Assembly (NCBI GenBank): GCA_019695235.1
Contig: JAIBAI010000008.1
Span: 2,607 to 66,606, forward strand
Length of the DNA stretch: 64,000 nt
DNA from: Bacteroidia bacterium
GTDB taxonomy: Bacteria; Bacteroidota; Bacteroidia; M30B66
Direction of reading: 5' to 3'
Numbering within the stretch: position 1 is the stretch's first letter; the number at the start of each line of letters is the position of its first letter. Of the stretch, positions 9,321-46,568 are shown piece by piece. A program made the translations under genes and the position numbers. The notes under the pieces were generated by a model. It saw only the letters and a list, made by a program, of their open reading frames with translations. It searched no databases and was not told the DNA's origin.

Positions 9321-10760
9321 ATGCAGAAAACCTTCATCCAAAACCTGATACTGCTGCTGACGCTTAATCTACTGATAAAGCCGTTTTGGGTATTTGGTAT
9401 TGAAGCCGAGGTTCAGCGCCAGGTAGGAACTGAGAGTTATGGCTTGTATTTCGCGCTATTTAACTTTTCATTCTTATTGAATATTCTGCTTGATTTTGGT
9501 ATTACCAATTTCAACAACAAAAACATTGCGCAAAACAACCACCTGATTACCAAGCACTTTTCGAGCATTTTGTTTTTAAAGTTGTTACTGGGTTGCATTT
9601 TCATGCTGGTTACCATGATAATTGGGTTTACTGTTGGGTACAATAAGAAAGAACTGGGTTTACTGGCCATGATGGGCTTCAACCAATTTCTTTCATTCAT
9701 GATTATGTACCTGCGATCAAATCTGGCCGGATTGCACCTATTTAAGACCGACAGTATCATATCTGTATTAGACCGGAGCCTGATGATTATTTTATGCGGA
9801 GCCGTCTTGTGGGGTCACGTATTGGATGAACCAATGACTATCGAATTGTTTGTATATACCCAAACACTTTCATACTTAATTGCTACCGGCATTACCCTGG
9901 CTATTGTTATCAGAAAGGCACACTTTAAACGGCTCAAATGGAATTATCCTTTTTTTCTGCTAATTCTTAAGAAGAGTTTCCCGTATGCGATTCTGGTGCT
10001 GTTGATGACATTTTATAACCGGATAGATGCGGTGATGCTTGAGCGTATGTTACCTGACGGCAAGTTAGAGAGCGGATTATATGCGGCAGCGTATCGCGTT
10101 CTTGACTCGGCAAATATGTTCTCGTTCCTGTTTGCCGGATTATTACTTCCGATGTTTTCAAGGATGCTTCGCTTTAAAGAACCTGTGGAACACCTTGTGA
10201 AGCTGGCATTTACCATATTAATTACGCCTGCCGTGATTGCTGTATGTGCAGCATTATTTTTCAGTCAGGAAATTATGGGGCTACTGTACAATGCCCATGT
10301 TGATGAATCTGCTGCGGTTTTTCGCATCATCATGGGTTGCTTTATTGCCTCTTCGCTTACCTATATTTTTGGTACCCTGTTGACCGCCAATGGCAACCTT
10401 AGGCAACTCAATGTTCTGGCAGCTTCAGGCATGGCAATTAACCTGCTTCTTAATCTCATTCTTATTCCAAGATTCCATGCCACCGGAGCAGCTTTTTCAA
10501 GTCTTATCACCCAAAGCACCTCTGCTATACTTCAAATGCTATTGGCACAAAAACTTTTTGGGTTCAGGATTAACAAACGCTTAATCGCACAAGTAACTGT
10601 TTTCATTCCTGCATGTTTGCTTATCGCATGGCTCTGCAGTAATCTATTCGACAATTGGGTATCAGGCTTTTTTCTGCTTGTTTTCCTGGGTACCGGGCTG
10701 GCATTTTCTATTGGCCTGTTGCATATTAAGTCAATCTATCGCATTTTAAAATACGGATAA
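9321..10760 (+). CDS. Wzx-like polysaccharide/oligosaccharide flippase (MATE-like polysaccharide biosynthesis protein)
   Basis: 479 aa with about 12-14 TM helices. Its N-terminal pattern (K P F W V F G I E A E V ...) is typical of the Bacteroidetes polysaccharide biosynthesis family. Confidence 0.65.
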   Translation: MQKTFIQNLILLLTLNLLIKPFWVFGIEAEVQRQVGTESYGLYFALFNFSFLLNILLDFGITNFNNKNIAQNNHLITKHFSSILFLKLLLGCIFMLVTMIIGFTVGYNKKELGLLAMMGFNQFLSFMIMYLRSNLAGLHLFKTDSIISVLDRSLMIILCGAVLWGHVLDEPMTIELFVYTQTLSYLIATGITLAIVIRKAHFKRLKWNYPFFLLILKKSFPYAILVLLMTFYNRIDAVMLERMLPDGKLESGLYAAAYRVLDSANMFSFLFAGLLLPMFSRMLRFKEPVEHLVKLAFTILITPAVIAVCAALFFSQEIMGLLYNAHVDESAAVFRIIMGCFIASSLTYIFGTLLTANGNLRQLNVLAASGMAINLLLNLILIPRFHATGAAFSSLITQSTSAILQMLLAQKLFGFRINKRLIAQVTVFIPACLLIAWLCSNLFDNWVSGFFLLVFLGTGLAFSIGLLHIKSIYRILKYG

Positions 10761-10773
10761 ACCATTCGCATCT

Positions 10774-11817
10774 ATGGAAACTCCCAATGAAAAAAGTCTC
10801 TTTGATTCAACACAATTGCTGTTGTTTATATGGACAAAACGTAAGATAATACTCATTGCCACCGCCATTTCAATGGTAGGTTCAATTGTGTTTTCTTCAC
10901 CCTTTTTCATAAAACCCAAGTTTCGTTCTTCGGTTATTTTATTTCCAACAACCAACAGCTCAATTTCTCGCTCTCTTTTAAGTGAAGCTACATTTGAGAA
11001 TGAGAACATCATGCAGTTTGGAGCAGAAGAGCAGGTTGAACAAATGATGCAGATTCTGCATTCTGACGAAGTAAGAGACCGGGTTATAAAGAAATACAAC
11101 CTGATGGATCACTACCGTATCAATCCAAATAGTACGTACCCACGTACAGAATTGAACCGGAAGATTGATGAAAACATTTCATTCAGTCGTACAGAGTATT
11201 TATCAGTTCGTATTGATGTTATGGACGAAGACCCTCAGATGGCTGCAAACATTGCCAATACCATTGGTGATCTACTTGACTCTGTAAAGACACGCATGCA
11301 GCAAGATCGGGCAAAAAAGGCACTTGCCATTGTTGAGAAAGAGTATTTTGATTTTCTGCACTACATGAATGCACGTGAGGATACCCTCAATAAACTTAGG
11401 ATGTTAGGGGTATTAAACTATGATGCACAGGTTGAACGTTTGAGCGAAGCCTATGGTAAAGCGGTAATGGCAGGCAATGCATCAGCCACAAAAATCATTG
11501 AGGATAAGATGAATATCCTGGTGCAATATGGTGGTATTTATACCGCAATTATTCAAGACATGGAACATGACCGGTTAGCCTTAAGCCGTTTGAAAACGAA
11601 ATACGAAGAAGCAAAAGTGGATGCCAGTCAGGAGCTGCCAAATAAGTTTGTTGTGAACGTTGCAACACCTGCTGAAAAGAAGGCCTATCCTGTGCGATGG
11701 CTTATCGTGGTGGTATCTACGCTTGGAGCCTTCCTGCTCTCAATTATTGCTGTTATCCTGCTCGAAAACTTAAATAGAATAAGGTTTGCCAGGTATTCTG
11801 AATCAACGCACCAGTAA
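10774..11817 (+). CDS. Wzz-like polysaccharide chain-length determinant
   Basis: N-terminal TM (IILIATAISMVGSIVF), large soluble coiled-coil region, and C-terminal TM (WLIVVVSTLGAFLLSIIAVILL). This is the Wzz topology. Confidence 0.5.
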   Translation: METPNEKSLFDSTQLLLFIWTKRKIILIATAISMVGSIVFSSPFFIKPKFRSSVILFPTTNSSISRSLLSEATFENENIMQFGAEEQVEQMMQILHSDEVRDRVIKKYNLMDHYRINPNSTYPRTELNRKIDENISFSRTEYLSVRIDVMDEDPQMAANIANTIGDLLDSVKTRMQQDRAKKALAIVEKEYFDFLHYMNAREDTLNKLRMLGVLNYDAQVERLSEAYGKAVMAGNASATKIIEDKMNILVQYGGIYTAIIQDMEHDRLALSRLKTKYEEAKVDASQELPNKFVVNVATPAEKKAYPVRWLIVVVSTLGAFLLSIIAVILLENLNRIRFARYSESTHQ

Positions 11818-13237
11818 ATGGTTTGAGCGCTGGTTCTTATTGATAACCGGCCTCTTTATTGTTGCCAACAGTCTGCTGATTTGGCAGGGGATTTTTTATT
11901 TCTCTGCGCTGCCGCTTGTTGTTCTCATCTTGTTGGCCGCTCTGTTTGCACTCGACAAACTGGTATATTTTATTGTATTTTTTGTACCCTTCTCCCTCAC
12001 GCTCGAATTCAGTGAATACGCGGCTTTGTCGGTACCCAGCGAGCCGCTTTTATTTGGGGTATTGCTCATTTTTATTTTCCGGATAGTTTACGCAGGAGGG
12101 TTTGACCGACAGGTGACCCGGCACCCCATTACAGTTCTTATTTTACTCTACCTCGCGTGGATGGTGATAACCTCCCTGACCAGTACGATGCCAATGGTAT
12201 CATTGAAATATACCTTAGCCCGTATCTGGTTTATGGTGAGCTTCTACTTTATCGCAACGCAGGTATTCAGGTCGGCAAAAAATATTCGCTTTTGGATTTG
12301 GCTGTTTACTGTTCCGCTTTCTATCGTAATCATTTACTCTATCGTCCAGTTTTTTAATTACAACATTGACAAAAATGCGCTGTACTGGGTAATGCAGCCG
12401 TTTTTCAAAGACCATACCATTTATGGTGCAGTAATTGCCATGATGCTTCCGGTGATGATAGTTTTCAGTTTTGACAAATCGTATCTTCCCAAATACAGAT
12501 TAATTTCAGGGGCTTTTTTCATAATCATTTTTGCCGGAATTGTTGTTTCTTATACACGGGCTGCATGGTTAAGTATTGTTGCCGCTTGGGGTGTTTACCT
12601 GCTGTTTCGTTATAGAATAAGCTGGAAATTGATTTTAGCTGCATTTGTACTGGGCATGGTGCTGCTTTTTCAATATCAGCATGAAATAATGTTGCGCATT
12701 GGCCAAAACCGTCAAAGTTCTTCAAAAGACCTTGCTGAGCATTTGCAATCTGTTTCAAATATTCGAAACGATGCATCCAACCTTGAACGCATTAACCGCT
12801 GGAGCTCGGCCATTAGGATGTTTAAAGATAAGCCTGTTCTCGGATTTGGTCCGGGAACATATCGCTTTCAATATGCCCCCTATCAGCGCTCTTATGAGCA
12901 AACCTATGTAAGTACAAATTCGGGTTCGCTCGGAAATGCACACAGCGAATATCTGGGGCCCCTTTCTGAGATGGGATTTCCGGGACTGTTGCTCTTTCTG
13001 TTGATTATTGCTTATACTATCTACTGTGCCTCAAGGGTGTACAATGCAAACCGTGGGAAACCTAATGGCTATTTGGTTATTGGCATATTAATGGGTCTTA
13101 TGACTTATTTCTTTCATGGAATCCTGAATAATTTCCTTGATCAGGACAAGGCTGCATTGCCTTTCTGGTCAATGATAGCCATGATTGTTGCACTCGACGT
13201 TTACCATCGCCACCCTGCGCAAGAAAAGCAGGTTTGA
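11786..13237 (+). CDS. O-antigen ligase/polymerase family membrane protein (WaaL/Wzy-like)
   Basis: Multi-TM protein with a large loop and YTRAAWLS-like motif region. Start is uncertain (TTG at 11786 overlaps the previous gene by 32 nt; no in-frame ATG before the first TM helix). Confidence 0.55.
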   Translation: MPGILNQRTSKWFERWFLLITGLFIVANSLLIWQGIFYFSALPLVVLILLAALFALDKLVYFIVFFVPFSLTLEFSEYAALSVPSEPLLFGVLLIFIFRIVYAGGFDRQVTRHPITVLILLYLAWMVITSLTSTMPMVSLKYTLARIWFMVSFYFIATQVFRSAKNIRFWIWLFTVPLSIVIIYSIVQFFNYNIDKNALYWVMQPFFKDHTIYGAVIAMMLPVMIVFSFDKSYLPKYRLISGAFFIIIFAGIVVSYTRAAWLSIVAAWGVYLLFRYRISWKLILAAFVLGMVLLFQYQHEIMLRIGQNRQSSSKDLAEHLQSVSNIRNDASNLERINRWSSAIRMFKDKPVLGFGPGTYRFQYAPYQRSYEQTYVSTNSGSLGNAHSEYLGPLSEMGFPGLLLFLLIIAYTIYCASRVYNANRGKPNGYLVIGILMGLMTYFFHGILNNFLDQDKAALPFWSMIAMIVALDVYHRHPAQEKQV

Positions 13238-13514
13238 ATTTTCTAACAGACAAAATAGCGGCCCTTATGTGATAGGGCATGTTTGTAAAAGCTTGTACGA
13301 AAGGGACATTCACTCCTCCGGATACAAGTAAGTAGTAAATTCTTACACGAAATTTACTTCTGTTTTGAGTCGTTTTTCGGTGATTCTGCCAGCGGCATCG
13401 CCACCTGCGGTATCACGTCTGTGTTAAATCTTACATCTGTAACCTGTAGCTGCTTTAAGGCAAAGCCAAAGGCAACCGATGATTGAAATTTGTCGTTGAG
13501 CAAATAAAAAATAC

Positions 13515-14021
13515 ATGACTCAGACCTCTACACACAAATTTACCGGGCTTTTTCCACTACTTATTGGTACTTTAATGTTGCTTGCTATTGTGCAGCAAAG
13601 CTCAGCACAGACAACACATACCTTTAAGGTAGAAAGCCCGAGCCAGGCACAACCGTTGGTAAAAGACTCGGTAGATAATTTCTTGTCATTTGCCCCAGTG
13701 TTCGCAGATGGCAAAACATTCCTGCGTTGGCTGGTAGAAAACGACCAAAAAGATGGTGTGTTTATTATTGAACGTTCAACTGACGGAAGCACCTTCGAAG
13801 CCCTTGGTTTCAAAGACAGAGTAGGTACCGACAAAAAGGTTAACCTGTTTTATTCGTATGTCGACAGTGAACCTCCTGCGGGTTATGCTCACTATAGGAT
13901 TATGCAGGTTGGTACAGACCGTAGTTTTAATTATTCATCTATTGAGCGTGTAAAGACTGGTCCTGCGTCAAATTCGGGTGGGAACGCTATCAATAGCGAA
14001 GAAAATAAGGAAGCAAAATAA
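13515..14021 (+). CDS. Small secreted protein (signal peptide plus about 90-aa beta-module), cassette 1
   Basis: Signal peptide ...AIVQQSSAQ. Module VDNFLSFAPVFADGKTFLRWLVENDQKDGVFIIERSTDGSTFEALGFKDRVG...YRIMQVG. Paralogs at 16031 and 18433. Confidence 0.65.
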   Translation: MTQTSTHKFTGLFPLLIGTLMLLAIVQQSSAQTTHTFKVESPSQAQPLVKDSVDNFLSFAPVFADGKTFLRWLVENDQKDGVFIIERSTDGSTFEALGFKDRVGTDKKVNLFYSYVDSEPPAGYAHYRIMQVGTDRSFNYSSIERVKTGPASNSGGNAINSEENKEAK

Positions 14022-14033
14022 TCCCTTTCAAAC

Positions 14034-15749
14034 ATGAAAAAACGTCAGGAAATAAGGCGAAAGATTCAGCTCAACCAAAGGGTACTATTAAAACGCCTTC
14101 CGGTTTATATACTGCTGGGGCTGACTGGAGTTGCGCTATGGTTCACCTACCTATTTACAATCAATGGTGTTAAAAGCTATGGCGCTATAACAGCCGATAC
14201 CACACAGTCGAACCTGCTTAACGTAACAATTAACCGGGATTTTCCTGTTCAGTCATTGCAAAATGATCTGGTTCCATTTTTGATATGCTATACCCATGAA
14301 GAGCTTCGGCACACCGATCAGGGTGGCAAAGTAATCAGCCGTGATGGTGCTGATATTCATTTTTTTGGTTTTGATAAGTCTCCGCTGGTTTATGAAATCG
14401 AACGCTATGAGCCTTTCACAGGCAGGGTTTGGGCTTGGGTTCACCTGAATCATGAGCTGGCAAAACAAGGCAAAATATTTATTGGCTATGGAGAAGCTTC
14501 TGATGAAATGCTTACCGGTTTTGGGTACCCCTACTTCTCGGTTTGGCACCTCAATGGAGGTTTTCAGTCTTCTGCTGCCTATCCACTTGCAGGAGAATAC
14601 CGGATGATAAAAGATGGTGAGGGGAAGATTTGTGGAGCAAAAGAATTCAACGCTTCAAGCCAGGCATCCATTTCTTTTGACCGGCCTGTTTCGTTTCCAA
14701 CGCATGGAAATATACAGGTGTCGGCTTGGTTTAAACCAAACACTACCGGAGATGTACAATATCTTTTTACCGACAAGAACAATAAAGGAGGTATAAGTCT
14801 TTTTATTGACCGGAATAATCGTCCTGCTTTTGAACTTTATAAAGGAAGTAAAAAACAAAGTGTCAAGGGTTCAACACCAATCTCTGCTGGTGTATGGTAT
14901 AAGTTTACAGCCGGTATTGACACCATAAAACAACAACTTTATATCTATGTCAACAATCAATTGGTAGGTGTAAGCCAAACCAACTGGTCGTACCAAAATG
15001 GCGGGAGGTTGGTAATTGGTGCTGTATCTGAGCGCTGCCACAGCTTCCTCGACGGAACACTTGATGAATTGCGTGTGTCTTCTTTGGGTAATGATTCTTT
15101 GCTAATTGGTTCCCAATTCCTATGTGAAAACAATCCACAATATCTGCTTGGTTCATCTGCACTTGTTTCTGAAAAGAAAGAAGGTGCAAAAATTTCAGAT
15201 CTTGAAGCTGAGGCAAAAAACGAGTACGTGGCAGTACGTTGGTTTAGTGAGAACGAACACCTCGCCGAATATTATATGCTTGAAAGAGCTTCCGGCAAAG
15301 ACTCATTCAGAACCATTCAAACCTGTGAGGTAAGAAGTAACAGTGGCACTGGTGGTCAAAATTATGTTCTTCTTGATAAAGAACCCCTCCAGGGCGAATC
15401 TGTTTACCGCATCAGTACTTTTGGTCGGGCAGGAAAACAAACTCCTGAGCTAACCGCAAAAGTATTTTTCAGCAATTCAGGAAACCCGATTTCAATCCGG
15501 CAAGTATCACCTAACCCGTTTAAAAGCAGGTTTGATGTGAGTTTCAGCACACAAACCAAAGAAGCGGTACAAATAAGTCTGACGAGTATGAGTGGTGAAA
15601 CCGTACATAAATCTGCATTTACGCCAGAAGAAACAGGGGATCAACTTTTCCACTTCAATGGTTCAGATAAGCTGTCTCCGGGCGTTTATTTTCTCAATCT
15701 CAGGCAGTCTGACTACCAGCGCACACTTAAGTTGGTTAAAAGAGGATAA
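14034..15749 (+). CDS. N-anchored/secreted protein with DUF2341-like N-domain, LamG-like jellyroll, beta-module and T9SS C-terminal sorting domain (cassette 1)
   Basis: N-terminal basic region plus hydrophobic segment. GGKVISRDGADIHFFGF...YEIERYEP.TGRVWAWV. LamG signature LDGTLDELRVSS. Module VAVRWFSENEHLAEYYMLERAS.KDSF. T9SS CTD ...PGVYFLNLRQSDYQRTLKLVKRG. Confidence 0.7.
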   Translation: MKKRQEIRRKIQLNQRVLLKRLPVYILLGLTGVALWFTYLFTINGVKSYGAITADTTQSNLLNVTINRDFPVQSLQNDLVPFLICYTHEELRHTDQGGKVISRDGADIHFFGFDKSPLVYEIERYEPFTGRVWAWVHLNHELAKQGKIFIGYGEASDEMLTGFGYPYFSVWHLNGGFQSSAAYPLAGEYRMIKDGEGKICGAKEFNASSQASISFDRPVSFPTHGNIQVSAWFKPNTTGDVQYLFTDKNNKGGISLFIDRNNRPAFELYKGSKKQSVKGSTPISAGVWYKFTAGIDTIKQQLYIYVNNQLVGVSQTNWSYQNGGRLVIGAVSERCHSFLDGTLDELRVSSLGNDSLLIGSQFLCENNPQYLLGSSALVSEKKEGAKISDLEAEAKNEYVAVRWFSENEHLAEYYMLERASGKDSFRTIQTCEVRSNSGTGGQNYVLLDKEPLQGESVYRISTFGRAGKQTPELTAKVFFSNSGNPISIRQVSPNPFKSRFDVSFSTQTKEAVQISLTSMSGETVHKSAFTPEETGDQLFHFNGSDKLSPGVYFLNLRQSDYQRTLKLVKRG

Positions 15750-16030
15750 TATCATCCTTTTATATTCAATAAAAACATGTTGAATGCATTAATCCTGACA
15801 GGGCTAATGCATTTTTTAATTGTACAAAATTGAAATTTAGTTTAAGTGCAAATTCTTTCACACATAATTTCTGGGTGTTTTCACAAAACTCTTGTAAATA
15901 AAGGGTTTCAGCGTATGAAAACAAGGATTAGCCAAAAATCTTACATCTGCAAGAAAGTAAACAGCAAGGCAAGAAACAGGTATAACTGTAGCCTGGAGTT
16001 TACGTAACAGAAGCCATCAACCTTTTGAAC

Positions 16031-16507
16031 ATGAAACGGATTTATTTTAGTTTAGTACTGGCCGCCGGAATGGTTGCCTTCGCATCTTCAGATTTGAATG
16101 CGCAACAGGTATCAGCCACGAGCACCTCGATGCTTGGCAAGGGTAACCTTGTGCCGGATTCTGTAGATAATTTCATCTCCTTCTCACCGGTGTATATGGA
16201 GGGTAAAACCTATGTACGCTGGCTGGTAAAAAACGATCGTAAAGACGGTGTTTTCATTGTTGAGCGTTCTGGTGATGGTGCAGAATTTGAAGCCATGGGT
16301 TTTCGTGATCGCGTAGGCACTCAGCTTTCAGTAAATCTCTTCTATTCTTATGTAGATGAAGAACCACTGGCAGGCTATAATCATTACCGGATTTTACAGG
16401 TAGGAGCCGACAACACTTACCGCTACAGCCCTGTAGTTAAGGTAAAAACAAACATTCCTGAACGTCAGGCTGGCTCTGTTGCTATTGACCAACCTGAATC
16501 AAAATAA
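16031..16507 (+). CDS. Small secreted beta-module protein, cassette 2
   Basis: Signal peptide ...FASSDLNAQQ. Module KTYVRWLVKNDRKDGVFIVERSGDGAEFEAMGFRDRVG...YRILQVG. Confidence 0.65.
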   Translation: MKRIYFSLVLAAGMVAFASSDLNAQQVSATSTSMLGKGNLVPDSVDNFISFSPVYMEGKTYVRWLVKNDRKDGVFIVERSGDGAEFEAMGFRDRVGTQLSVNLFYSYVDEEPLAGYNHYRILQVGADNTYRYSPVVKVKTNIPERQAGSVAIDQPESK

Positions 16508-16544
16508 TCAGAAGGCACCTCCCTTTCTTAACAACATTTCATTT

Positions 16545-18317
16545 ATGAAGAAGAACTCTACACGCCTCGCACCCAAAACCAAAGTAAAGGTCAGCCTCCG
16601 GAACCGCTTACGGTATGTGACAATTGCCGGTGCTTTTGCCTTTGGTATTTTTTCAGTCACTATGGTGTACAACTCTTTGATTAACACTGAGGAGAGCCGC
16701 GCCAACAACCGTTTCAACGGTATGGAAACTTTGGCTGAATTCAAATTCAGAAAGCAATTGGTGCTCAACCAGGAATTGATCCCTGAAAACACTTTATTAC
16801 AAGATTTCCCCGTGATGGTTGCTTTGGCCGATCCGGATTTGAAATCTGCATCCAATGGCGGGAAAGTTCTCAGTGAAAAGGGTTTCGACATCCGTTTCAC
16901 CAAAGCCGATGGTGTTAGTTTACTTGAATACGAGATTGAAAAATACAATCCGGCAACAGGCGAATTAGTTGCCTGGGTGAACATGGACACCCTCAGCAGA
17001 GGTATTTCACGCCATGTTTATATGTATTTCAGCAATAAGTTTTCTGCTGATGAAAGCAGCCAGAATACTTGGAATAAGACTTACAAAGGTGTGTGGCATT
17101 TGAGAGGAATTCTCAGCTCAAAAACACCTTTCTCGACCCAGGTTGCCCAGAAAGCTGTAACACCAGTAACGCAGGATAAAGATGTATATGTTGCAGCTGA
17201 AAAGAATTCAAGCCGCTACCCTTGTCTGAATACCCCTGAGGATGTTGATATTACTGGCGACTTGAGCGTGTCTGCCTGGGTGTATATCACAGGAAGCAAA
17301 GAAATGACAATTCTTTCGAACCAGAACGGTTTTAACGGTGGCTATCGTCTTTCACTCAACAAGAATCAAAAACTCGAATTGTCGGTGAGTAACGAAAATG
17401 CTGAATCCGCTGCTATCAAAGGTAGCTCTGATGGCACCACACTCGAGAAAAACAAATGGTATCATGTTGCAGCGGTGTATTCTGACCGTGGTGATTCTAT
17501 GTGTACTTATGTAAATGGCAAGCGTGATCGCTTTCTTACAACATACGTAAGCATGGCGGGAAGCAGCAGCCCCCTTCAAATAGGCAGAGAACCCTCTAAG
17601 AAAATTTTCTACTTCGGTGGACAAATAGAGGAGGTACATGTCCGCAATGTGGTGATGAACAATCACTGGATTCAAACAGAATACGTCAATCAAAATAATC
17701 CGATGGAATTCATTAAACCGGGCATGACTGAAAATATCACCCAGCAAATTTCAATGAGCCTTTTGACGCTTGATGCAGAAACACAAGGACAAACAGTTGA
17801 GTTGAAATGGCTTACTGTAAACGAGAACAACAATGAACTTTTCACCATTGAACGTTCTACCGACGGGCTTACCTATGAAGTAATCGGCACCAAACCAGGA
17901 GCAGGGAACAGCATAGAAGTGTTAAGTTATCGTTTCAGAGACGAGAAACCGGTGGTAGGGAAAAACTTCTACCGTGTTAAATTAACCGACACGCAGGGAA
18001 ACAACGAATTTTCAATGATTACTCCGGCCAGCGTGGAAGCGATGGGCGAGGATAAAATTCAAATTGCCTCAGCGCAACCCAATCCATTCAATAAAGATTT
18101 CATGGTTGAATACCGGGTTCCAAAAACCGGAATGGCCAAAGTAAAACTTACAAGTGTTAAGGGAGATGTATTGCATGAGCAGGAAGTTGCCTGCGAAAAA
18201 TCAAAAGCTCAACACTTCCAGTACAAGGATGATGCCGGTATCCGTGCCGGTGTTTATTTCCTCACAATAGCACAGGAAACCGAATCCAAGACTATCAAAC
18301 TAATCAAGAAGCTGTAA
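16545..18317 (+). CDS. DUF2341-like/LamG-like protein with T9SS C-terminal domain, cassette 2
   Basis: ATG at 16545 (MKKNSTRLAPKTK) by analogy with its paralogs. GGKVLSEKGFDIRFTKADG..LEYEIEKYNPATGELVAWV. LamG GGQIEEVHVRNV. Module VELKWLTVNENNNELFTIERSTDGLTYE. CTD GVYFLTIAQETESKTIKLIKKL. Confidence 0.7.
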   Translation: MKKNSTRLAPKTKVKVSLRNRLRYVTIAGAFAFGIFSVTMVYNSLINTEESRANNRFNGMETLAEFKFRKQLVLNQELIPENTLLQDFPVMVALADPDLKSASNGGKVLSEKGFDIRFTKADGVSLLEYEIEKYNPATGELVAWVNMDTLSRGISRHVYMYFSNKFSADESSQNTWNKTYKGVWHLRGILSSKTPFSTQVAQKAVTPVTQDKDVYVAAEKNSSRYPCLNTPEDVDITGDLSVSAWVYITGSKEMTILSNQNGFNGGYRLSLNKNQKLELSVSNENAESAAIKGSSDGTTLEKNKWYHVAAVYSDRGDSMCTYVNGKRDRFLTTYVSMAGSSSPLQIGREPSKKIFYFGGQIEEVHVRNVVMNNHWIQTEYVNQNNPMEFIKPGMTENITQQISMSLLTLDAETQGQTVELKWLTVNENNNELFTIERSTDGLTYEVIGTKPGAGNSIEVLSYRFRDEKPVVGKNFYRVKLTDTQGNNEFSMITPASVEAMGEDKIQIASAQPNPFNKDFMVEYRVPKTGMAKVKLTSVKGDVLHEQEVACEKSKAQHFQYKDDAGIRAGVYFLTIAQETESKTIKLIKKL

Positions 18318-18336
18318 CCTAACCGTTACTTTTTAA

Positions 18337-18370
18337 CCCCGCGAGGACTTGTTCTGAGCGGGGTTTTTTA
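18337..18370 (+). terminator. Rho-independent terminator
   Basis: CCCCGCgaggacttgttctgaGCGGGG followed by TTTTTT, directly after the stop at 18317. Confidence 0.7.
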
Positions 18371-18432
18371 ACGCAACGTTTACGCTTAAATCAAAAATGA
18401 ATTTTTCTCCCGTTTAACCTAACCCTATCCGT

Positions 18433-18918
18433 ATGAATTTCTGTCATAAATATTCACAGCGAAAAAAATTACTCATCCTTTCTGCACTGATAGGTTTGAT
18501 ATTAAGCGGTACGGGCGATGCCGCTGCTCAGCAACAATACGGTGCAGGCCTTGTAGGTTCAGCCCGCTTGTATCAGGAAGAAAGCAACAATATTGTTTCG
18601 TTTTCGCCCGTTTATGCCGAAGGGAAATCTTATATCCGATGGCTTGTACAAAATGATGAAAAAGACGGCATCTTCATTGTGGAGCGTTCTTCTGACGGCA
18701 TTCTTTTCGAAGCGCTCGGCTTTAAAGACCGGATTGGTTCATCACTTTGTGTAAACCTTTTTTATTCGCTAACCGATGAAACCCCTTTTCCGGGCACCAC
18801 ATGGTATCGTATCATGGCTGTTAGTACCGACCAAACCTATTCATACAGTTCAGTGGTACGTGTGAAAACCCAGGCGGCGAAAGAACCCGGAAACGGAAAT
18901 ACCGTATTAGGAGAATAA
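18433..18918 (+). CDS. Small secreted beta-module protein, cassette 3
   Basis: Signal peptide ...GTGDAAAQQQ. Module KSYIRWLVQNDEKDGIFIVERSSDGILFEALGFKDRIG...YRIMAVS. Confidence 0.65.
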   Translation: MNFCHKYSQRKKLLILSALIGLILSGTGDAAAQQQYGAGLVGSARLYQEESNNIVSFSPVYAEGKSYIRWLVQNDEKDGIFIVERSSDGILFEALGFKDRIGSSLCVNLFYSLTDETPFPGTTWYRIMAVSTDQTYSYSSVVRVKTQAAKEPGNGNTVLGE

Positions 18919-18955
18919 GATTTCTCGTAAAACAAGAATAACCAGATAATCTATC

Positions 18956-20347
18956 ATGAAACCCAGGCTACACCTCAAACCAAAAAACAAGGTACGTGTA
19001 AGTGCTTCGGTTCGTCTGGTAGTTGCAGGAGCAGTGTTTGCAACACTCGTTGCTGTAGGCTTTCTGGTTTATTACAATTTCGGAACAAGTACCGATACGT
19101 GGGCATTTAACGAATCACGTTTTTCGGGTTATGCCTGGCGAAAAAAAATAAGTTTCGACAAAACGATATTACAGGGTAATGAGACTTTGTACAATTTCCC
19201 ATTATTAATTGAAGTGAAAGACCCTGATTTAAAACATATTAGCCGGGGCGGGAAAATGGTTCACCTTAAAGGTGGTGATATCCGGTTCAGTAAAGCAGAT
19301 GGTGAAACTGTTTTGATTTCACAAATTGAACACTATAATCCTGAATCCGGGAGGCTATTGGCCTGGGTACTTCTGGATACGCTGTCGGCAAAAAGTGCAT
19401 CTTCGATATACCTCTATTTCAGCCGTGCCGATATACCACCCTCTAATAATTCGCTCTTCTGGGAAGGTTCGTATCAGGCCATCTGGCATTTTAGCAATAG
19501 TCTCCAGGCCGACAATTCACGCCGAATTCGTGCTACCATGATGGGCACATCTGAAGCAAATGGTGTTGTTGGAAATGGGAGAAATTTTAGTGCTGCTAAT
19601 AGCGACTGTGCTCAATTTCCCTGGTTACAGGAACTTGATTTAAAGGCCGATATCAGTGTATCAGCATGGGTTCAGTTGCATTCAATTAACCGTCATCAGG
19701 TAATTCTATCAAATCAGGGCGACCAACCAGGTGGATACCGTTTGTATATTGACAAGAACAACAAAGTGGCATTTGATTTTATCAATTTGGCAGGAATGCA
19801 CCTAGGCACTGAAAGCAGCCCGGGTGGTCAGGAACTAGAAAACGGGCAATGGTACCATATCGCTGCTGTTTATTCTTTGGATGATAAAACCATTCGCACT
19901 TACCTCAACGGTCAATTAGACAAAGTAGCCGTGGTGAATGACTCCCCGGCGCCAACACCCGCTGCTTTGCAAATGGGGCGCGATCAGTTTGTTGCTGATA
20001 CATATCTTGATGGTACTATTGACGAGGTACGCTTAAGTAAAATGGTTAAATCATCAACCTGGCTTTTAACTGAATATTACACGATGAAAATGGCCGGAAG
20101 CCTTTTCCGGATGGGGCCTTCAGAAGCGTTGCAGATGCATGCATCTGCTGTGAAATCAAACAAAGAAGCCATGAATCTGCTTAGCCGAACCGAAGCAGAG
20201 CAGCAGGAAGCCGTCAACCAGTTACAGGCAAAGAAAAACTCCGGAACCGCACCAACACTCATCCCAATGAGCGAAAACAACGACGTAATAAAAGCCCGTC
20301 TTGAAAATATCCGCAGGGTGTCTAAAGACAATGCGAAGGCTGAATAA
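18956..20347 (+). CDS. DUF2341-like/LamG-like protein, cassette 3, with no beta-module or T9SS CTD; C-terminus is a coiled coil
   Basis: GGKMVHLKGGDIRFSKADGETVLISQIEHYNPESGRLLAWV. LamG DGTIDEVRLSK. C-terminus ...EAEQQEAVNQLQAKKNS...ARLENIRRVSKDNAKAE. Confidence 0.65.
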   Translation: MKPRLHLKPKNKVRVSASVRLVVAGAVFATLVAVGFLVYYNFGTSTDTWAFNESRFSGYAWRKKISFDKTILQGNETLYNFPLLIEVKDPDLKHISRGGKMVHLKGGDIRFSKADGETVLISQIEHYNPESGRLLAWVLLDTLSAKSASSIYLYFSRADIPPSNNSLFWEGSYQAIWHFSNSLQADNSRRIRATMMGTSEANGVVGNGRNFSAANSDCAQFPWLQELDLKADISVSAWVQLHSINRHQVILSNQGDQPGGYRLYIDKNNKVAFDFINLAGMHLGTESSPGGQELENGQWYHIAAVYSLDDKTIRTYLNGQLDKVAVVNDSPAPTPAALQMGRDQFVADTYLDGTIDEVRLSKMVKSSTWLLTEYYTMKMAGSLFRMGPSEALQMHASAVKSNKEAMNLLSRTEAEQQEAVNQLQAKKNSGTAPTLIPMSENNDVIKARLENIRRVSKDNAKAE

Positions 20348-20451: not shown

Positions 20452-20478
20452 AGCGGCTAAAAGCAAAGCCGCTTTTTA
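20452..20478 (+). terminator. Rho-independent terminator
   Basis: AGCGGCTaaaagcaaAGCCGCT followed by TTTTT. Confidence 0.5.
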
Positions 20479-20604
20479 CTATTTTTGGGCATAATGTTCG
20501 CTAAGCAGGATGTTGTTAGCACCAGCAATCTGAACAGCTGTCATCAATCAATACTTGAGAATAAAAAGATATTGCAAATTTCATTATTACATTCAAAAAA
20601 ACGC

Positions 20605-21822
20605 ATGAAAGCGCTACAAACAATAACAATGGCATTATTTATCACGGTATTACTATCTTCATGTAAAAAAGAAGATGATGTTGTCCCTAATCATGATAAT
20701 CCAAATAATATAACACTACTCAATACGAGTCAATGGACAGTCGTTGCGAGCCATATTCAAAAGAAACAACAGGGCAATCTGGGCGGGCGTTTCGGTACTT
20801 CTGCGTTCAGTTTACAAAAGCAGGATGAGTTGCGTTGGTATCTATACTTTAGTCACATGACAGGCATTCAGGACCCGATAGAGATTGTTGTAAACAACCA
20901 AAATGCTGTAACTGTAACTAAGCCACCAGGAAATATGGCTTCAGATTTCAGAGACATAAAAACCATTTATGGAGCCGACACGTGGGAAACCCGCATATCT
21001 TCTACATCTTCCAATAATTCCATCAATATCAATTCGTATAAAAATGGGCAATATACAGACATTGGTTATTCAAACTTTACTATGCATAAATTACAAGCAT
21101 CCGAAGATGGACTTTTGACTTCTAAAGAGTTCTATGGTGGCAACAATAGCGTTTCCCATTATCATTATGGTAGCGGGCAGTGGAAAGATAATGTGTTTTG
21201 GGCTACCCAATTTGTATCAACCCGTTACAATGGTAAAACCTATGTTGCCACTTTACTAAATGACGGAACAACGGGTACTCAAGGAACCTTTACAGTATTT
21301 GAAGAATCTAACACTCCTGGCCCCTCCAATGTTTATGAGATGACCAATAAGAATGAAGTGATAATTCCAAATGCAGGATATATTATGCACTCAACTCGCC
21401 ATAATGAAAATCTTTTTGTTGCTATTAATGCTCAGTGGCAAAATAAATATGTGGTGTATAAAATCAATCTAAATAACTATTATGTACAAAAAGTAATGGA
21501 AGAAACGAAAGTAGAAAATTATGAGAATCCCGAATTTATTATAAAAAACCTTGCTTCATTAGCGGAGATAGACCCACAAGGAAATTTATATATGGTAGCC
21601 AATCGCGTGGAAAATATGGATTCACATTACAGCATCAGGAAATACAAAACTACCGGTGGCAGCGAAGTAATACTAAAAGAAGAAGGCCTTAAAAAGCTCA
21701 CACGAATTGATGCTGTTTATTTTTTCAATAATAAATTACATGCTGCAATTATTTACAGAGAAGAATTGGCCGGTAATAACGGAATGAACAATTACCACAT
21801 GCAAATAATTTGTCAAAAATAA
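20605..21822 (+). CDS. Hypothetical lipoprotein, the first gene of the AT-rich region
   Basis: Lipoprotein signal MKALQTITMALFITVLLSSC. AT-rich coding sequence with no recognisable catalytic motif. Confidence 0.5.
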   Translation: MKALQTITMALFITVLLSSCKKEDDVVPNHDNPNNITLLNTSQWTVVASHIQKKQQGNLGGRFGTSAFSLQKQDELRWYLYFSHMTGIQDPIEIVVNNQNAVTVTKPPGNMASDFRDIKTIYGADTWETRISSTSSNNSININSYKNGQYTDIGYSNFTMHKLQASEDGLLTSKEFYGGNNSVSHYHYGSGQWKDNVFWATQFVSTRYNGKTYVATLLNDGTTGTQGTFTVFEESNTPGPSNVYEMTNKNEVIIPNAGYIMHSTRHNENLFVAINAQWQNKYVVYKINLNNYYVQKVMEETKVENYENPEFIIKNLASLAEIDPQGNLYMVANRVENMDSHYSIRKYKTTGGSEVILKEEGLKKLTRIDAVYFFNNKLHAAIIYREELAGNNGMNNYHMQIICQK

Positions 21823-21864
21823 TTTTGAAGCAAAATTTAACTCACTCTTTAGTAGCATCAATCA

Positions 21865-22908
21865 ATGAAGAATTTATTAGGATACATACTACAGCTTTTG
21901 CTTTTATTAAATGTAACCGTTAGCAAAGCTCAAAGTACCAATTGGTATTATGACCAACAAACCCGCTATGGCACTTTTCGCCATTACTCTAACGGTGGTG
22001 CCAAACTTATAACTACATCCAGGGGTGGGCGTGATTATGCAGGAGAAATGGCAGCATCCTATCAGGAACTGGTACAGATGAAGGAAGAGCGGGAAAGGCA
22101 ACGGATGATTGAAATTGAGCGCATGAGAAGGGAAAGCTTGCAGCAAGGTAGCAGCGGTTCAACAAGTGCTGTTCAAAAAAACTATGGTCCCACGCCTGCA
22201 GACTTAGCCCGGCAAGAGCAGCAAGAAAAAGATCGTTTTTACAAGCAGTATGAAGAGCTTTTGCACAACGCAAATGGTCTGTCTAACCAGGCACTTATTC
22301 TTTCTGAAATGTACAAACTGCGACCTAATGATACTGTTGCGCTGCGACTGTTCGGCATATATGCAAAACTGGGGAGAGAAGAAGATATGGATAGGTTGAA
22401 TAAATCATTTTCAGCCTCCTTTATAGCTGAAAATCATGATATTATTTGGTCAGGATGGGGACACAAAAGCTATATAGCCGGCACTTACAAATTAGTATTA
22501 ATGTACTTGGCGAAAATAAATGAACCTGACCTGAATAGTTTTGCACAAACGCTTTGCAGCCACCTGAGGTTGCACAATTGGAATGAGCTACCAGTATTGC
22601 TTGAAAAATACAGCAGTCGCTTTCCGGAGCTTTTATCGGTTTCCCCGAAACTTACTTCTGCTTTTCGTTACTTGAGTGCCCGGCAAATTGGAACAACAGA
22701 AGCAAAAGCAACTGCCGCTGAACTGCATCAGTTTGCCGTGACCCGGCGTGAAAACCGTATAATGGATTTTGTCAATATTGTTGTTCTTGATGCCGCGGTA
22801 AGTCTTGATCCGGAAAACAGCATCTACCGTGAAGAACGATTTAATTCAAATTCTATTCTCCAACTCAAACCTGCGATGCAGGAGGATTACGATTTTTTCA
22901 GCAGATAG
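21865..22908 (+). CDS. Hypothetical secreted protein with a coiled-coil segment
   Basis: Signal peptide MKNLLGYILQLLLLLNVTVSKAQS. Charged coiled coil EERERQRMIEIERMRRESLQQ. Confidence 0.45.
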   Translation: MKNLLGYILQLLLLLNVTVSKAQSTNWYYDQQTRYGTFRHYSNGGAKLITTSRGGRDYAGEMAASYQELVQMKEERERQRMIEIERMRRESLQQGSSGSTSAVQKNYGPTPADLARQEQQEKDRFYKQYEELLHNANGLSNQALILSEMYKLRPNDTVALRLFGIYAKLGREEDMDRLNKSFSASFIAENHDIIWSGWGHKSYIAGTYKLVLMYLAKINEPDLNSFAQTLCSHLRLHNWNELPVLLEKYSSRFPELLSVSPKLTSAFRYLSARQIGTTEAKATAAELHQFAVTRRENRIMDFVNIVVLDAAVSLDPENSIYREERFNSNSILQLKPAMQEDYDFFSR

Positions 22909-22918
22909 AAACCCCATC

Positions 22919-23881
22919 ATGAAATATATTTTCTTTTGTTTGTGTGCAATAGGCACTTTGCTGCCACTTCACAGTACTGCGCAATATTATGTAGGATGGA
23001 ATCGTGTTTTCCCTGACCGTGCAGGTAAAGTGATTGCTTTTAAGGCAGTTTATTCGGGCGCTTCCGACACGATTTACTTTGTAGATGTTGCTACCGGCAC
23101 TATTACAGACAGGGTGGCCGACGGGAGTTTTGGCTTAGAGTTTAAAATGTTGAAGGCTAAAGTATTGAACCGTGAGAAGGAGATGAATAAAGCACTTGTT
23201 GCGTTTCATACTTTGTCTCATTTTGAAAGGGACAAGGGAAATATGGAAGAATACATTGTGCGTTGGAAAAATGATTCAACAATTGCCAGCGCATTTTTGC
23301 CTAAAGTAGAAGTGCACAGTTATGAACCAAGAGTCTTTTATAAACCAGACAAACCCCGAAAGGTGCTGCTGGGGGTACGGCTTAACGGCGTAGCAATGCT
23401 TTACGACATGCTGGATACAACCAAAAATGGAGCAGCTAAGCTGCTTTACAGTAAAGACATAAATAAGGCCGACTACGAGGACTGGGAACGTGGGTACTTC
23501 CAGCAGGCTGTTATTTCGCCCAGCGGGAACCACGTTTTCACAATGCCTGACGGCACAATGATAGACATTGTAAAAGGTAAGAAAATATGGGATTTCAACT
23601 ATAAGAAAACAGGCTCATCTGATGTGGTTTTTAGCGAAGACGGCACGCGCATCGCCATTGAACATCAAGACAAATCAGTATCGGTTTTCAACGTAAAGAA
23701 AGGCAAGAGGCTGTATAAGATTCCTGCTCCACCAACGTTCCCGGGTGAGTTGGAAGTTGACCATTTGCTGCCACTCCCCGATATGCAGAGCTGCTTTGTT
23801 TTCTACATGGATTATAAGAATAGTGTAGCGAAAGTATTGTTGTTGAATTCTGATGGAAACTATAAAGAGATTAAGTTTTAA
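22919..23881 (+). CDS. Hypothetical secreted protein
   Basis: Signal peptide MKYIFFCLCAIGTLLPLHSTAQ. Beta-rich sequence. Confidence 0.45.
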   Translation: MKYIFFCLCAIGTLLPLHSTAQYYVGWNRVFPDRAGKVIAFKAVYSGASDTIYFVDVATGTITDRVADGSFGLEFKMLKAKVLNREKEMNKALVAFHTLSHFERDKGNMEEYIVRWKNDSTIASAFLPKVEVHSYEPRVFYKPDKPRKVLLGVRLNGVAMLYDMLDTTKNGAAKLLYSKDINKADYEDWERGYFQQAVISPSGNHVFTMPDGTMIDIVKGKKIWDFNYKKTGSSDVVFSEDGTRIAIEHQDKSVSVFNVKKGKRLYKIPAPPTFPGELEVDHLLPLPDMQSCFVFYMDYKNSVAKVLLLNSDGNYKEIKF

Positions 23882-23939
23882 CCTTGTTGGATCAATCGTT
23901 CGAATGCCGCTTTTTATTAATTGCATTCAATAAGTTACC

Positions 23940-24182
23940 ATGCCAAAATTAAAACGCTGGCTTTATGCAATTGCGATCGCAATTTTTTCCACTTTACTGG
24001 TGGCTTATGCTTATGATATTGAAAAAGAAATACCCATCGAACCTTCGAGCACACAGGCAGGACGACAAGACATACTGATTACAGTAGCTGATGCATTAGG
24101 GCTTACAGGTAGTATTTTAGTGGCGTTGGTGGCTACTGGTATCGGACTGTATTATGCTATTCGCCAACACTTCACAAGATAA
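23940..24182 (+). CDS. Small 2-TM membrane protein
   Basis: 80 aa with two hydrophobic helices. Confidence 0.35.
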   Translation: MPKLKRWLYAIAIAIFSTLLVAYAYDIEKEIPIEPSSTQAGRQDILITVADALGLTGSILVALVATGIGLYYAIRQHFTR

Positions 24183-24657
24183 TATTTTAATGAAATTGAT
24201 TGGCACAATACTCATCTTCATCGGAATAATTTTCGGTGTGTTCGGCGCAAGGTCGTATTGGCACAATTATTTGTATAATCAGGCCAGTACTACAGTAAAA
24301 GCTACGGTGAAATCCGCTGAAATAAAACCCATGTCAGGAAAAGCGGTAGGCAGTATCCGGATTGTTCTTAGTTATAAGCGTGATGGCCTTACAGACAGTT
24401 TAGAATACAATTTTTCAGAGGCATATTCAAATAAAGAACCCCTGCCCAGCGAGGAAGAATTGAAATCCGCAACTTATTATGTGCGCTATGTACCAAAGGA
24501 AAAAACAAATAAAAACATACCCGATTGGGTTATGGTAAGCAAAAAAGGTGAATTTGAAGAATTTTACGGCATATCTACGTTTACACAAATGTTCACGTTT
24601 ATTTTGCTGGGAATTATGGTAAGGATGTTCGCACGAAAAAATCAGGCGACGTTATGA
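24154..24657 (+). CDS. Membrane protein (DUF3592-like; N- and C-terminal TM)
   Basis: TM near the N-terminus (LIGTILIFIGIIFGVF) and near the C-terminus (MFTFILLGIMV). Alternative ATG at 24190. Confidence 0.4.
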   Translation: MLFANTSQDNILMKLIGTILIFIGIIFGVFGARSYWHNYLYNQASTTVKATVKSAEIKPMSGKAVGSIRIVLSYKRDGLTDSLEYNFSEAYSNKEPLPSEEELKSATYYVRYVPKEKTNKNIPDWVMVSKKGEFEEFYGISTFTQMFTFILLGIMVRMFARKNQATL

Positions 24658-25031
24658 CAAAACTTTTCTTTTTAATAATTACGCTCCTTGTGACAAAAAA
24701 CATTGTCTGTCAGTCTGACAACAAGCTTCTTATTGGTGAGTTGACAATAAGCCAAACGACAATCGAAAGGGCAAAAGTTGGTGACACTCTGGCATTTATA
24801 TTCACTAAGAAAAAATTTGTTGGTAGTATTAAAATTCACTCCGACAGTTCAATTTACGCTTGGGCAACCTGTACTTTAGGGCAAAAAGGGTATTTTTGGT
24901 GTAAAATTGGAACGTGGGATAGAAAAAAATTTGTTATCTTAAATTTACATTGCAAGACTATCATTCTAAAAAACATAACAACAGACATTGGATTAGGGCA
25001 ACAAAAGTTAATAATTCAAGACATCTGGTAA
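24654..25031 (+). CDS. Hypothetical small secreted protein
   Basis: N-terminal hydrophobic signal MTKLFFLIITLLVTKNIVCQS. Confidence 0.35.
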   Translation: MTKLFFLIITLLVTKNIVCQSDNKLLIGELTISQTTIERAKVGDTLAFIFTKKKFVGSIKIHSDSSIYAWATCTLGQKGYFWCKIGTWDRKKFVILNLHCKTIILKNITTDIGLGQQKLIIQDIW

Positions 25032-25120
25032 AGAAATTATAGCAGACGCTTTAAGCAATATAGCGGTGTACTGCGACCAGACACCTAACAGCGACTATAT
25101 CTCAAACGGAAGGTGCTTAG

Positions 25121-25669
25121 ATAATAAAAATTTGTGTCTTTAATATAGACATTATTGCACAAAAGCAAGCCATTGACATTCCGGGTAGAAGAACGATATT
25201 TGACTTTGCCTGCAATATCGAAAGCAAACTTTTTGGATTTGATGTAAAAACCAAAGATTTAGATTCAACAAGCTATTCAGATGGTGGTGTCTGTGCCGTT
25301 GGTAATCTTCTTAAATTTCTTGCAAATGATAAAGGAGTCTTTATGATTGTAGAGTTTGGGCACGACAAATCAACAACAAAGAATAGTAGCCGGGATATTG
25401 AATACATTCGAGTAGCGCCATTTCATTGCCTGCCAGAGAACACATATCGAATAGAGAATTTGGGAACCGGGCAAGTAAGGCTAAACTACACCGTAAATCA
25501 GGTTTGGGATGAGATTGACTGGAACAGGTCTTACAGTGACTTTTTTGATATTTTTTGCCAACTTTCAATAACCCATTACAAGAGAGTAAAAGCAGACGCA
25601 GAAAAGCGCATTAAATCAATAGAACAGTTCAAAGATGGCGGATATGAAAACTTTCGATTTATCAGATAA
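25121..25669 (+). pseudogene. Start-less ORF remnant adjacent to the methyltransferase, possibly a decayed partner such as a restriction endonuclease
   Basis: Open frame from the stop at 25118 to 25669 with protein-like composition. The first ATG is at 25343 (108-aa ORF); no ATG/GTG/TTG upstream in frame. The frame overlaps the MTase start. Confidence 0.3.
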
Positions 25670-43459: not shown

Positions 43460-43470
43460 GTTTCCGGATA

Positions 43471-46551: not shown

Positions 46552-46568
46552 AGGTGTTATGCTGCTTT

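Follow-up and report, generated by a model that had tools for sequence, protein, structure and literature searches.

The locus described here lies in a 64-kb stretch of DNA (the window) from a Bacteroidia bacterium, positions 2,607 to 66,606 of contig JAIBAI010000008.1 in assembly GCA_019695235.1. Between 13515 and 20347 of the window, three pairs of genes follow one another head-to-tail, each pair consisting of a gene for a small exported protein and, directly after it, a gene for a large one. We call the small genes S1, S2, and S3 and the large genes L1, L2, and L3; loci of other genomes are labeled L001, L002, and so on. All six open reading frames (ORFs) are on the plus strand, to which all array coordinates given below refer, and they lie where an earlier, sequence-only reading of this DNA had placed them. 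S1 (13515-14021, 168 residues) and L1 (14034-15749, 571 residues) share a reading frame and are separated by a stop codon. S2 (16031-16507) has 158 residues counted from its ATG, and a TTG at 16025 is also a possible start. L2 (16545-18317, 590 residues) begins with a conserved MKKNST; its frame is open from a TTG at 16479, giving a 29-nt overlap with the end of S2, but since every L2 ortholog begins at MKKNST or MKKRST, at the equivalent of 16545, ORF calling has probably drawn this frame too long. The third pair consists of S3 (18433-18918, 161 residues) and L3 (18956-20347, 463 residues). A terminator-like hairpin, CCCCGC...GCGGGG followed by TTTTTT, is read from the sequence 3' of L2 (18337-18369), and an intrinsic-terminator-like hairpin with a T-run (20452-20483) stands at the end of the array.

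The three small proteins are built alike, each with a signal peptide, a short conserved peptide characteristic of its group, and one module resembling a fibronectin type III (FN3) domain; a signal peptide plus a single module is also what had been read from the sequence. The leaders contain a variable hydrophobic stretch followed by an invariant A24-Q25 (A|Q), which is the signal peptidase I pattern of the phylum, the Bacteroidetes Q-rule (PMC5837995). The peptide after the cleavage site is QTFKVxPPSEAKPL in S1, VSxxSxxLLxxGNL in S2 (ortholog consensus), and GxGLxGSAxL in S3. The S proteins had no match to any family in Pfam or NCBIfam and no type IX secretion system (T9SS) sorting domain, and there is no lipobox cysteine in either the S or the L proteins. 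Given a Sec signal with a Q-rule site, and neither lipobox nor sorting domain, the mature S proteins should be soluble and periplasmic. In an AlphaFold (AF2) model of S2, the only S protein modeled, the N-terminal peptide is disordered and residues 40-140 form a beta sandwich with predicted local distance difference test (pLDDT) values above 90.

Searching with S2 gave 99 homologs. They come without exception from uncultured Bacteroidota and fall into three orthologous groups corresponding to S1, S2, and S3. The S genes are under strong purifying selection. Against their closest relatives the nonsynonymous rate (dN) is 0.07 to 0.30 with a saturated synonymous rate (dS), and where dS is measurable dN/dS is 0.03 to 0.10 (0.10 for S1 against L005, 0.03 to 0.07 for S2). 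They change no faster than their partners, with dN of 0.07 for S2 and 0.16 for L2, 0.25 for S1 and 0.51 for L1, and 0.30 for S3 and 0.31 for L3. The small ORFs are real genes.

The large proteins have in common a DUF2341 region and a LamG jelly roll, as had been seen before. Laminin_G_3 (PF13385) was matched by Pfam in L1 (14661-15080), L2 (17226-17675), and L3 (19610-20053) with E values of 7e-18 to 2e-24. DUF2341 (PF10102) scored above the Pfam gathering cut-off of 23.4 bits in L2 (16881-17063, 29.7 bits) and L3 (19271-19450, 31.4 bits); the weak match in L1 (14343-14501, 17.4 bits) is below the cut-off and aligns over the same conserved block, GGK..G.DIRF...Y.P.TG...AWV. Toward the C terminus L1 and L2 carry an FN3-like module (15195-15497 and 17763-18065) and then a type A T9SS sorting domain (TIGR04183, cut-off 23 bits) at 15504-15743 (37.1 bits) and 18078-18311 (31.3 bits); their orthologs in L001, L002, L004, and L005 also match PF18962. 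L3 has the same conserved N terminus as L1 and L2 and lacks both C-terminal elements: no sorting-domain match was found in it in the Pfam and NCBIfam scans, and in their place are about 90 residues with a conserved helix, NDVIKARLENIRRV (20279-20320), at the end. The earlier assignment of two of the three large proteins to the T9SS thus stands. Since they bear the type A sorting domain, L1 and L2 are in sequence terms type A T9SS cargo and would be delivered to the cell surface.

A search with L1 found only five homologous proteins, and the structure model of L2 (mean pLDDT, 81) thus rests on relatives of L3 and L1. It comprises an N-terminal helix (residues 14-46), the DUF2341 sandwich (60-185), a poorly predicted stretch (188-225), the LamG domain (230-397), the FN3-like module (405-497), and the sorting domain (506-588). 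With both the Pfam match and the jelly-roll fold that define Laminin_G_3/ConA-like lectins, the L proteins are lectin-type envelope proteins of the LamG/CBM40-like fold, with putative glycan binding. The paralogs had been judged to be roughly 40 to 60% identical; this holds for the small proteins (44-50%) and not for the large ones, which are only 20-24% identical to one another. L1 is the fast-diverging member, at 30-45% identity across genomes.

The segments matched by a profile of the S family, residues 397-490 of L2 (E=1.7e-10) and residues 399-466 of L1 (E=3.7e-5), immediately precede the sorting domain, and L3 gave no match; the recurrence of the small-protein module within the two large partners is borne out. 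In the S2 model the module is a sandwich of seven or eight strands whose best Protein Data Bank (PDB) matches in Foldseek are FN3 domains; the top match of this predicted structure, an FN3 domain of Ihog, has an E value of 6e-4 and a target-normalized template-modeling score of 0.66 to 0.71. The module has no match in Pfam, including the fn3 models, or in NCBIfam at E≤1, and no sequence relative in the PDB; it belongs, as the sequence-only reading had said, to no characterized family. Its signature is W..N...F.(I/V)ERS.DG followed by Y.F.D..P..G..YYR. A profile search of 1.84 billion cluster representatives recovered it in 63,723 proteins at E≤1e-3 and in 10,504 at E≤1e-10. The carriers extend to proteins of several thousand residues with up to 17 tandem copies, and many others, of 140-240 residues, consist of the module only. 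They include giant PKD/SprB/VWA proteins and a "DUF2341 domain-containing protein" of Pedobacter flavus with eight copies. When 13 multidomain carriers were scanned, Por_Secre_tail was matched in 10 at E≤0.01, with 7 above the gathering score, and no Pfam model covered the module itself. Among the best 146 new representatives, 69 are shorter than 250 residues, and 59 of these 69 have a signal-peptide/Q-type motif.

On these data the module is a stalk element of T9SS cargo that is generic, very common, and as yet unmodeled, and that usually stands just before the sorting domain; its presence in L1 and L2 is no evidence of a special relation to the S proteins. The earlier argument that a free copy of a domain beside a protein with the same domain points to complementation is thus not supported; a generic Ig/FN3-type fold had been named at the time as the finding that would undo that argument, and a generic FN3-like fold is what the module has. 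The argument is weakened also in that L3, which has no module, keeps its S3, that the S modules are no closer to the module of their own partner than to that of the other L protein, and that stand-alone relatives have other neighbors. In the loci examined, stand-alone module genes elsewhere are not generally followed by an L-like gene. Another type of pair occurs in L168 (3596-4506) and L172 (8001-8899), where the gene for a small module-only protein overlaps that for a secreted protein of 146-148 residues, with a LuxR-type response regulator gene divergent upstream and a YHYH protein with a sorting domain encoded nearby.

The complete order S1-L1-S2-L2-S3-L3 is found in seven other genomes (L001, L002, L004, L005, L087, L088, and L090), on contigs that include two NCBI metagenome-assembled genomes (MAGs), a 4.2-Mb contig (L004), and Joint Genome Institute (JGI) metagenomes. 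The source records of this clade are labeled Flavobacteriales or Bacteroidia, that is, uncultured Bacteroidota, and close L3 orthologs were found in only two species representatives of a collection of 185,579 genomes. An S gene always lies directly 5' of its own L gene, with an S-L gap of 12-60 nt where the start is clear and an L-S gap of 115-400 nt. The flanking genes vary, with gyrB upstream and a 7TMR-DISM/LuxR/HisKA_3 set downstream in some loci and Wzy_C upstream in the clade of the window. Because the same six-gene order recurs amid different flanks, the block is self-contained. Each of the six genes gives a clean orthologous clade, and the species topology is the same in all of them, from which it follows that the triplication is older than the sampled lineage and that inheritance is vertical, in keeping with the old, maintained array that had been suggested. 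The S and L trees could not be compared for congruence of their duplications, since with three groups each there is nothing to compare.

Whether the number of cassettes varies among relatives had been put forward as a check, and it does, by whole pairs. The Flavobacteriales MAG L006 lacks S1 and L1 together, that is, exactly cassette 1, and its Wzy_C gene is followed directly by S2; the genes upstream are those of the window at 54-93% identity (Rho, 93%; flippase, 88%; Wzz, 81%; Wzy_C, 77%; also DUF4293). Farther afield, no small module gene was found beside a distant DUF2341-LamG gene in about 150 other loci, most of which carry such relatives. In Pedobacter sp. ok626 a 178-residue gene upstream of the DUF2341-LamG gene encodes a GAF protein, and two further relatives also lack a small module gene.

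Directly 5' of the array, at 9321-13237, the window encodes a polysaccharide flippase, a Wzz-type chain-length protein, and a Wzy_C/O-antigen-ligase-type protein; this set is kept upstream in L006, with Wzy_C also in L005, and is not found in genomes farther off. The lectins may possibly be linked to a glycan that the cell makes itself. On the 3' side, about 7 kb (20485-27179) separate L3 from a GDH/GARS/ATP-synthase block that in the syntenic L005 follows L3 directly. This interval, in which GC falls to 0.37, holds ORFs of 445 residues (with a lipoprotein-like leader), 347 residues, and 358 residues (subthreshold WD40-type matches only) with no significant Pfam match, an ORF of 167 residues, and an Eco57I-type methylase gene (25635-27179); it was probably acquired as an island.

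Aligning the regions upstream of the S genes across genomes revealed a composite element, in which a box, CTTACAnnTGTAA (CTTACA(N2)TGTAA), is followed after 31 nt by AAC-N16/17-CGT, an extracytoplasmic function (ECF) sigma-type promoter candidate. In cassette 1 the box CTTACATCTGTAA (13430-13442), a TTACA-N2-TGTAA dyad with one mismatch to the Bacteroidota sigma-A -7 box TAnnTTTG, precedes an AAC-N17-CGT candidate (13474-13496) that ends 18 nt 5' of the S1 ATG. In cassette 2 the box CTTACATCTGCAA (15940-15952) precedes an AAC-N16-CGT candidate (15984-16005) ending 25 nt 5' of the S2 ATG. Across genomes the box is present with three mismatches or fewer 5' of 21 of 26 S genes (chance, 0.04 per 200 nt), and AAC-N16/17-CGT before 23 of 26, ending 18-58 nt 5' of the ATG (chance, about 0.05 per 130 nt); the spacing from box to AAC is exactly 31 nt in 20 of 23 promoters. 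The AAC/CGT element lies 5' of S1 in 8/8 genomes, at the same position in each (GGCAACC-N16-CGTTGAG), 5' of S2 in 9/9, and 5' of S3 in 6/9, and it was found before none of 17 L1 and L2 genes. A similar element precedes L3 in 5/9 genomes; in the window the candidate is a weak one, an AAC-N16-CGT within the 3' end of S3 (18884-18905) that begins 72 nt 5' of the L3 ATG. Besides it, the window has an AAC/CGT site 150 nt or less from a gene start only at S1 and S2. A sigma-70 scan and a scan for exact TAnnTTTG gave nothing above chance in the intergenic regions, and Rfam found no RNA family in the window.

In L005 a gene for an ECF sigma factor lies immediately 5' of S1, and we consider its product a candidate regulator of the AAC/CGT promoters. 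It belongs to a segment between Wzy_C and S1 (L005, 1165-4298) that also encodes a 403-residue protein without a Pfam match and a DUF2807 protein; the segment is absent from the window, where no ECF sigma gene adjoins the array. Promoters with a CGT -10 box have been assigned to ECF sigma factors in F. psychrophilum, where they drive gldN, porU, and other T9SS-related genes (PMC9723704), and in P. gingivalis the ECF sigma factor SigP controls T9SS genes in the PorXY-SigP system (PMC4800418). A CTTACAT..G box without AAC/CGT was also seen about 83 nt (L171) and about 80 nt (L166) 5' of the unrelated stand-alone module genes P0172 and P0156, and the box may be a promoter or operator of a wider family of small proteins. 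Downstream of L3, L001 and L002 encode a 7TMR-DISM membrane protein, a LuxR-type response regulator, a HisKA_3 kinase, a cNMP-binding protein, and a Band_7 protein. A dyad like the box is the kind of site that LuxR-type regulators bind. Band 7 genes belong to the CGT-box regulon of F. psychrophilum (PMC9723704).

The N termini of the L proteins are unusual. In every genome they begin with about 20 mostly basic residues, continue with 19-22 hydrophobic residues, and then reach G(T/N)SxDS(I/R)A or a close variant; in the model of L2, the only L protein modeled, the hydrophobic stretch is part of the single long helix 14-46. A small-x-small site (S/T/G/A-x-A/G) 9-11 residues past the hydrophobic stretch is kept in 26/26 L sequences, and several L1 orthologs, though none of the L proteins of the window, have Q at the +1 position of this candidate cleavage site. 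The whole N-terminal region is among the best-conserved parts of L3. Ordinary leaders are present in the other T9SS cargo of the window, in 12 other module-bearing proteins, and in the distant DUF2341-LamG relatives, and because those relatives have ordinary leaders the N terminus is a special feature of this clade. The large proteins had been described as N-anchored, which goes further than the data: the leader fits an extended cleavable signal peptide and a signal anchor alike. Cleavage is indicated by the universal small-x-small site and the Q after it in some L1 orthologs; retention is indicated by the length of the hydrophobic stretch and by the strong conservation of a region that in ordinary leaders of the same genomes is variable. 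For L1 and L2 we tentatively favor a cleavable extended signal peptide, since T9SS cargo must be free in the periplasm. A role of the L proteins as anti-sigma factors was considered and rejected, the cytoplasmic part being only about 20 residues long.

The S-L pair is supported as a conserved functional unit by its strict adjacency, the fixed six-gene order, the joint loss of S1 and L1, and the placing of promoters 5' of S and never of L1 or L2. Adjacency and joint loss, with the group-specific and predicted disordered peptides of the S proteins, further suggest that S and L pair physically. We propose that an ECF sigma factor, possibly with a dimeric regulator at the box, turns the cassettes on together; that S and L would be co-transcribed and exported by Sec, L with what is most likely an extended signal peptide; and that in the periplasm each S protein may bind its own L protein to escort or mask it, probably by means of the N-terminal peptide of its group. 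The T9SS would then take over L1 and L2, which would be displayed as adhesins that bind glycans and stand on an FN3-like stalk, and L3 and S3 would remain within the envelope. As a whole, the reading in which the lectin-type envelope proteins of the array are co-regulated and each has a periplasmic partner dedicated to it is tentative, and we put its probability at about 0.4.

That the organism has a T9SS is confirmed by GldH, encoded in the window together with two other sorting-domain cargo proteins; the core gldKLMN and sprA genes are not within the 64 kb. The gene for the GldH lipoprotein, a gliding/T9SS component (39692-40186), adjoins that for a PSP1-domain protein (38548-39723). The two cargo proteins belong to a starch-utilization locus (42074-51177), in which SusD-like (42074-43459) and SusC-like (43471-46551) genes and an alpha-amylase gene with a sorting domain (46569-49451) are on the minus strand and a gene for an X25/CBM20/CBM48 protein with a sorting domain (49825-51177) is on the plus strand. 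The leaders of these two cargo proteins are short and ordinary, with Q at +1, and neither protein carries the module.

Several observations weigh against the proposed pairing of each small protein with its large one. A mirror-tree comparison, underpowered with eight genomes, gave no clear cognate signal (S1-L1, 0.42; S2-L2, 0.28; S3-L1, 0.88). The S proteins are at least as conserved as the L proteins, which could equally mean that they bind another, invariant component of the envelope, and stand-alone module proteins occur in unrelated contexts, as an orphan gene, with a holin-like neighbor, or with the 146-148-residue secreted partner. The other T9SS cargo of the window has no small partner, and no cargo-specific small periplasmic partner of the T9SS was found in the literature consulted, whose one chaperone-like component, SkpA, is a general one (PMC10994853). 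The promoters are called from sequence patterns only, and in the window, L005, and L006 neither box nor AAC/CGT promoter was found 5' of S3 and a hairpin follows L2, so that regulation of the cassettes is not uniform in the clade of the window. The L N terminus, finally, is far more conserved than an ordinary signal peptide, which argues for retention as an anchor and is a poor fit with T9SS export.

Much of this would suit an arrangement in which S and L are co-regulated and physically independent. The S proteins would then belong to a broad family of small one-module proteins of the periplasm whose target is some conserved component of the envelope, for example peptidoglycan, an intermediate of polysaccharide synthesis, or a T9SS part. 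The abundance of short exported module proteins among the best new representatives, their varied contexts, the conservation of S, and the mirror-tree result are all as expected of such a family; strict one-to-one adjacency in every genome, the loss of S1 with L1 in L006, and the lack of a promoter between S and L1 or L2 are not, and three separately kept S groups with different N-terminal peptides are hard to explain by one common target. We consider independence doubtful. Alternatively, the L N terminus might be retained as an inner-membrane anchor. L3 would then span the periplasm, as would possibly L1 and L2, either until their release or in place of it, and the S proteins would serve as periplasmic struts or adaptors in an envelope-spanning lectin assembly tied to the T9SS. 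A hydrophobic stretch of transmembrane-helix length within a long helix, the conservation of this region in L3, the short and variable signal peptides of S and other cargo, the missing Q in the L proteins of the window, and the ordinary leaders of distant relatives speak for it. Against it are the fact, established for the system (PMC10994853), that T9SS cargo can pass the translocon only when free in the periplasm, and the small-x-small site of all 26 L sequences with its Q at +1 in several L1 orthologs, as for signal peptidase I substrates of the phylum; we think this assembly unlikely. That the array is an ordinary expansion of adhesin paralogs for ligand or antigenic diversity, with S as functionless, decaying fragments of cargo genes left with a stalk module, might be read from the fast divergence of L1 and from how common the module is in cargo stalks. 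It is already contradicted by the selection and synteny data, since the S genes are intact in every genome with signal peptides of their own, have dN/dS values of 0.03 to 0.10 where measurable, carry the conserved promoter, and exist in three copies that predate the divergence of all sampled genomes; we give it next to no weight.

The reading with dedicated periplasmic partners can be carried further. The S proteins might recognize their own lectin cargo through the short N-terminal peptide, the L N terminus might tether the cargo to the inner membrane until hand-over, and the six proteins together might form an envelope-spanning, ECF-controlled device for lectin delivery with L3 and S3 as its nonsecreted base. 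We hold this to be quite improbable; if it were true, the module, with more than 60,000 sequence clusters, would be a very large uncharacterized family that does more than act as a spacer. On the general view, a Sec leader and a C-terminal sorting domain are all that T9SS cargo needs, and a dedicated small periplasmic partner for particular cargo, if real, would add a new layer to the pathway. The locus offers a compact test system for this, with three natural pairs of which one has no sorting domain. It also gives the DUF2341-LamG proteins, widespread in bacteria and archaea and of a function not known, a concrete cellular setting; it exposes a very large FN3-like family missed by current family libraries; and its sharply conserved composite promoter could be the sign of a wider ECF regulon among these uncultured Bacteroidota of freshwater and wastewater. 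If S and L do not interact, what remains is an ordinary, neatly organized adhesin family.

The array was compared with several known systems, some of which could be set aside as identities. A donor-strand, chaperone-usher, or type V pilus system was rejected, since the S and L proteins have no lipobox cysteine and no usher or pilin families were found in or beside the array. An MshQ-like accessory role in a type IV pilus was rejected because no pilus genes lie beside any of the eight arrays and the N termini lack the G|F..E prepilin motif, and a fusion of the ExbB/TolQ-DUF2341 kind because L1-L3 have no MotA_ExbB match in Pfam. The DUF2341-LamG proteins found elsewhere, namely, proteins annotated as MshQ in MSHA type IV pilus loci, N-terminal appendages of ExbB/TolQ-like channel subunits, and archaeal pilus-locus proteins, have the same two-domain core, as seen from Pfam and from 23-29% identity, and come from many phyla. 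Reports on DUF2341 itself describe no more than a domain of unknown function that is joined to envelope machines (PMC12505986, PMC4858521). Unlike those proteins, the ones described here have no pilin signal, MotA/ExbB domain, or pilus genes, and the distant relatives examined have ordinary leaders and no adjacent small module gene.

For single features the parallels are closer. The charged extension of the L N terminus resembles the extended signal peptide region of type V autotransporters, a long, conserved, positively charged extension before the hydrophobic core of the leader in large surface proteins; the two are not similar in sequence and use different secretion pathways, and cleavage here is putative. 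The module is like the FN3 stalk or spacer domains of secreted bacterial proteins in its predicted fold, but it has no Pfam fn3 match, has a signature of its own, and occurs as a stand-alone secreted protein. The cassettes have in common with the ECF-controlled T9SS genes of P. gingivalis (PorXY-SigP) and F. psychrophilum (the SM6 "CGT box") an AAC -35 element, a CGT -10 element, a spacing of 16-17 nt, and the link to the T9SS (PMC4800418, PMC9723704). The additional dyad box at a fixed 31 nt is specific to the cassettes, and control of this kind is here a prediction from sequence patterns.

The most similar systems in function are the type A cargo adhesins and lectins of gliding Bacteroidota, for example RemA, a mobile surface lectin of F. 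johnsoniae, and SprB, which is encoded in an operon with sprF. L1 and L2 resemble them in the sorting domain, in the lectin-type domain on a beta-sandwich stalk, and in the accessory genes of the same operon. RemA depends on self-made polysaccharide, and the array in the clade of the window adjoins polysaccharide genes (flippase, Wzz, and Wzy_C). The differences lie in the binding unit, which is DUF2341 plus a LamG/CBM40-like domain rather than a SUEL-type lectin or SprB repeats; in the accessory gene, which encodes a small soluble FN3-like protein rather than an outer membrane protein of the PorP/SprF type; and in the triplication of the unit, with one copy lacking the sorting domain and an atypical conserved N terminus throughout. 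The parts of the locus are familiar, and the pairing of S with L and its purpose have not been described; the array departs from known surface lectins and adhesins in its DUF2341-LamG unit, its small soluble FN3-like companion, its three anciently fixed copies, of which one is nonsecreted, and the atypical, conserved N terminus of its large proteins.

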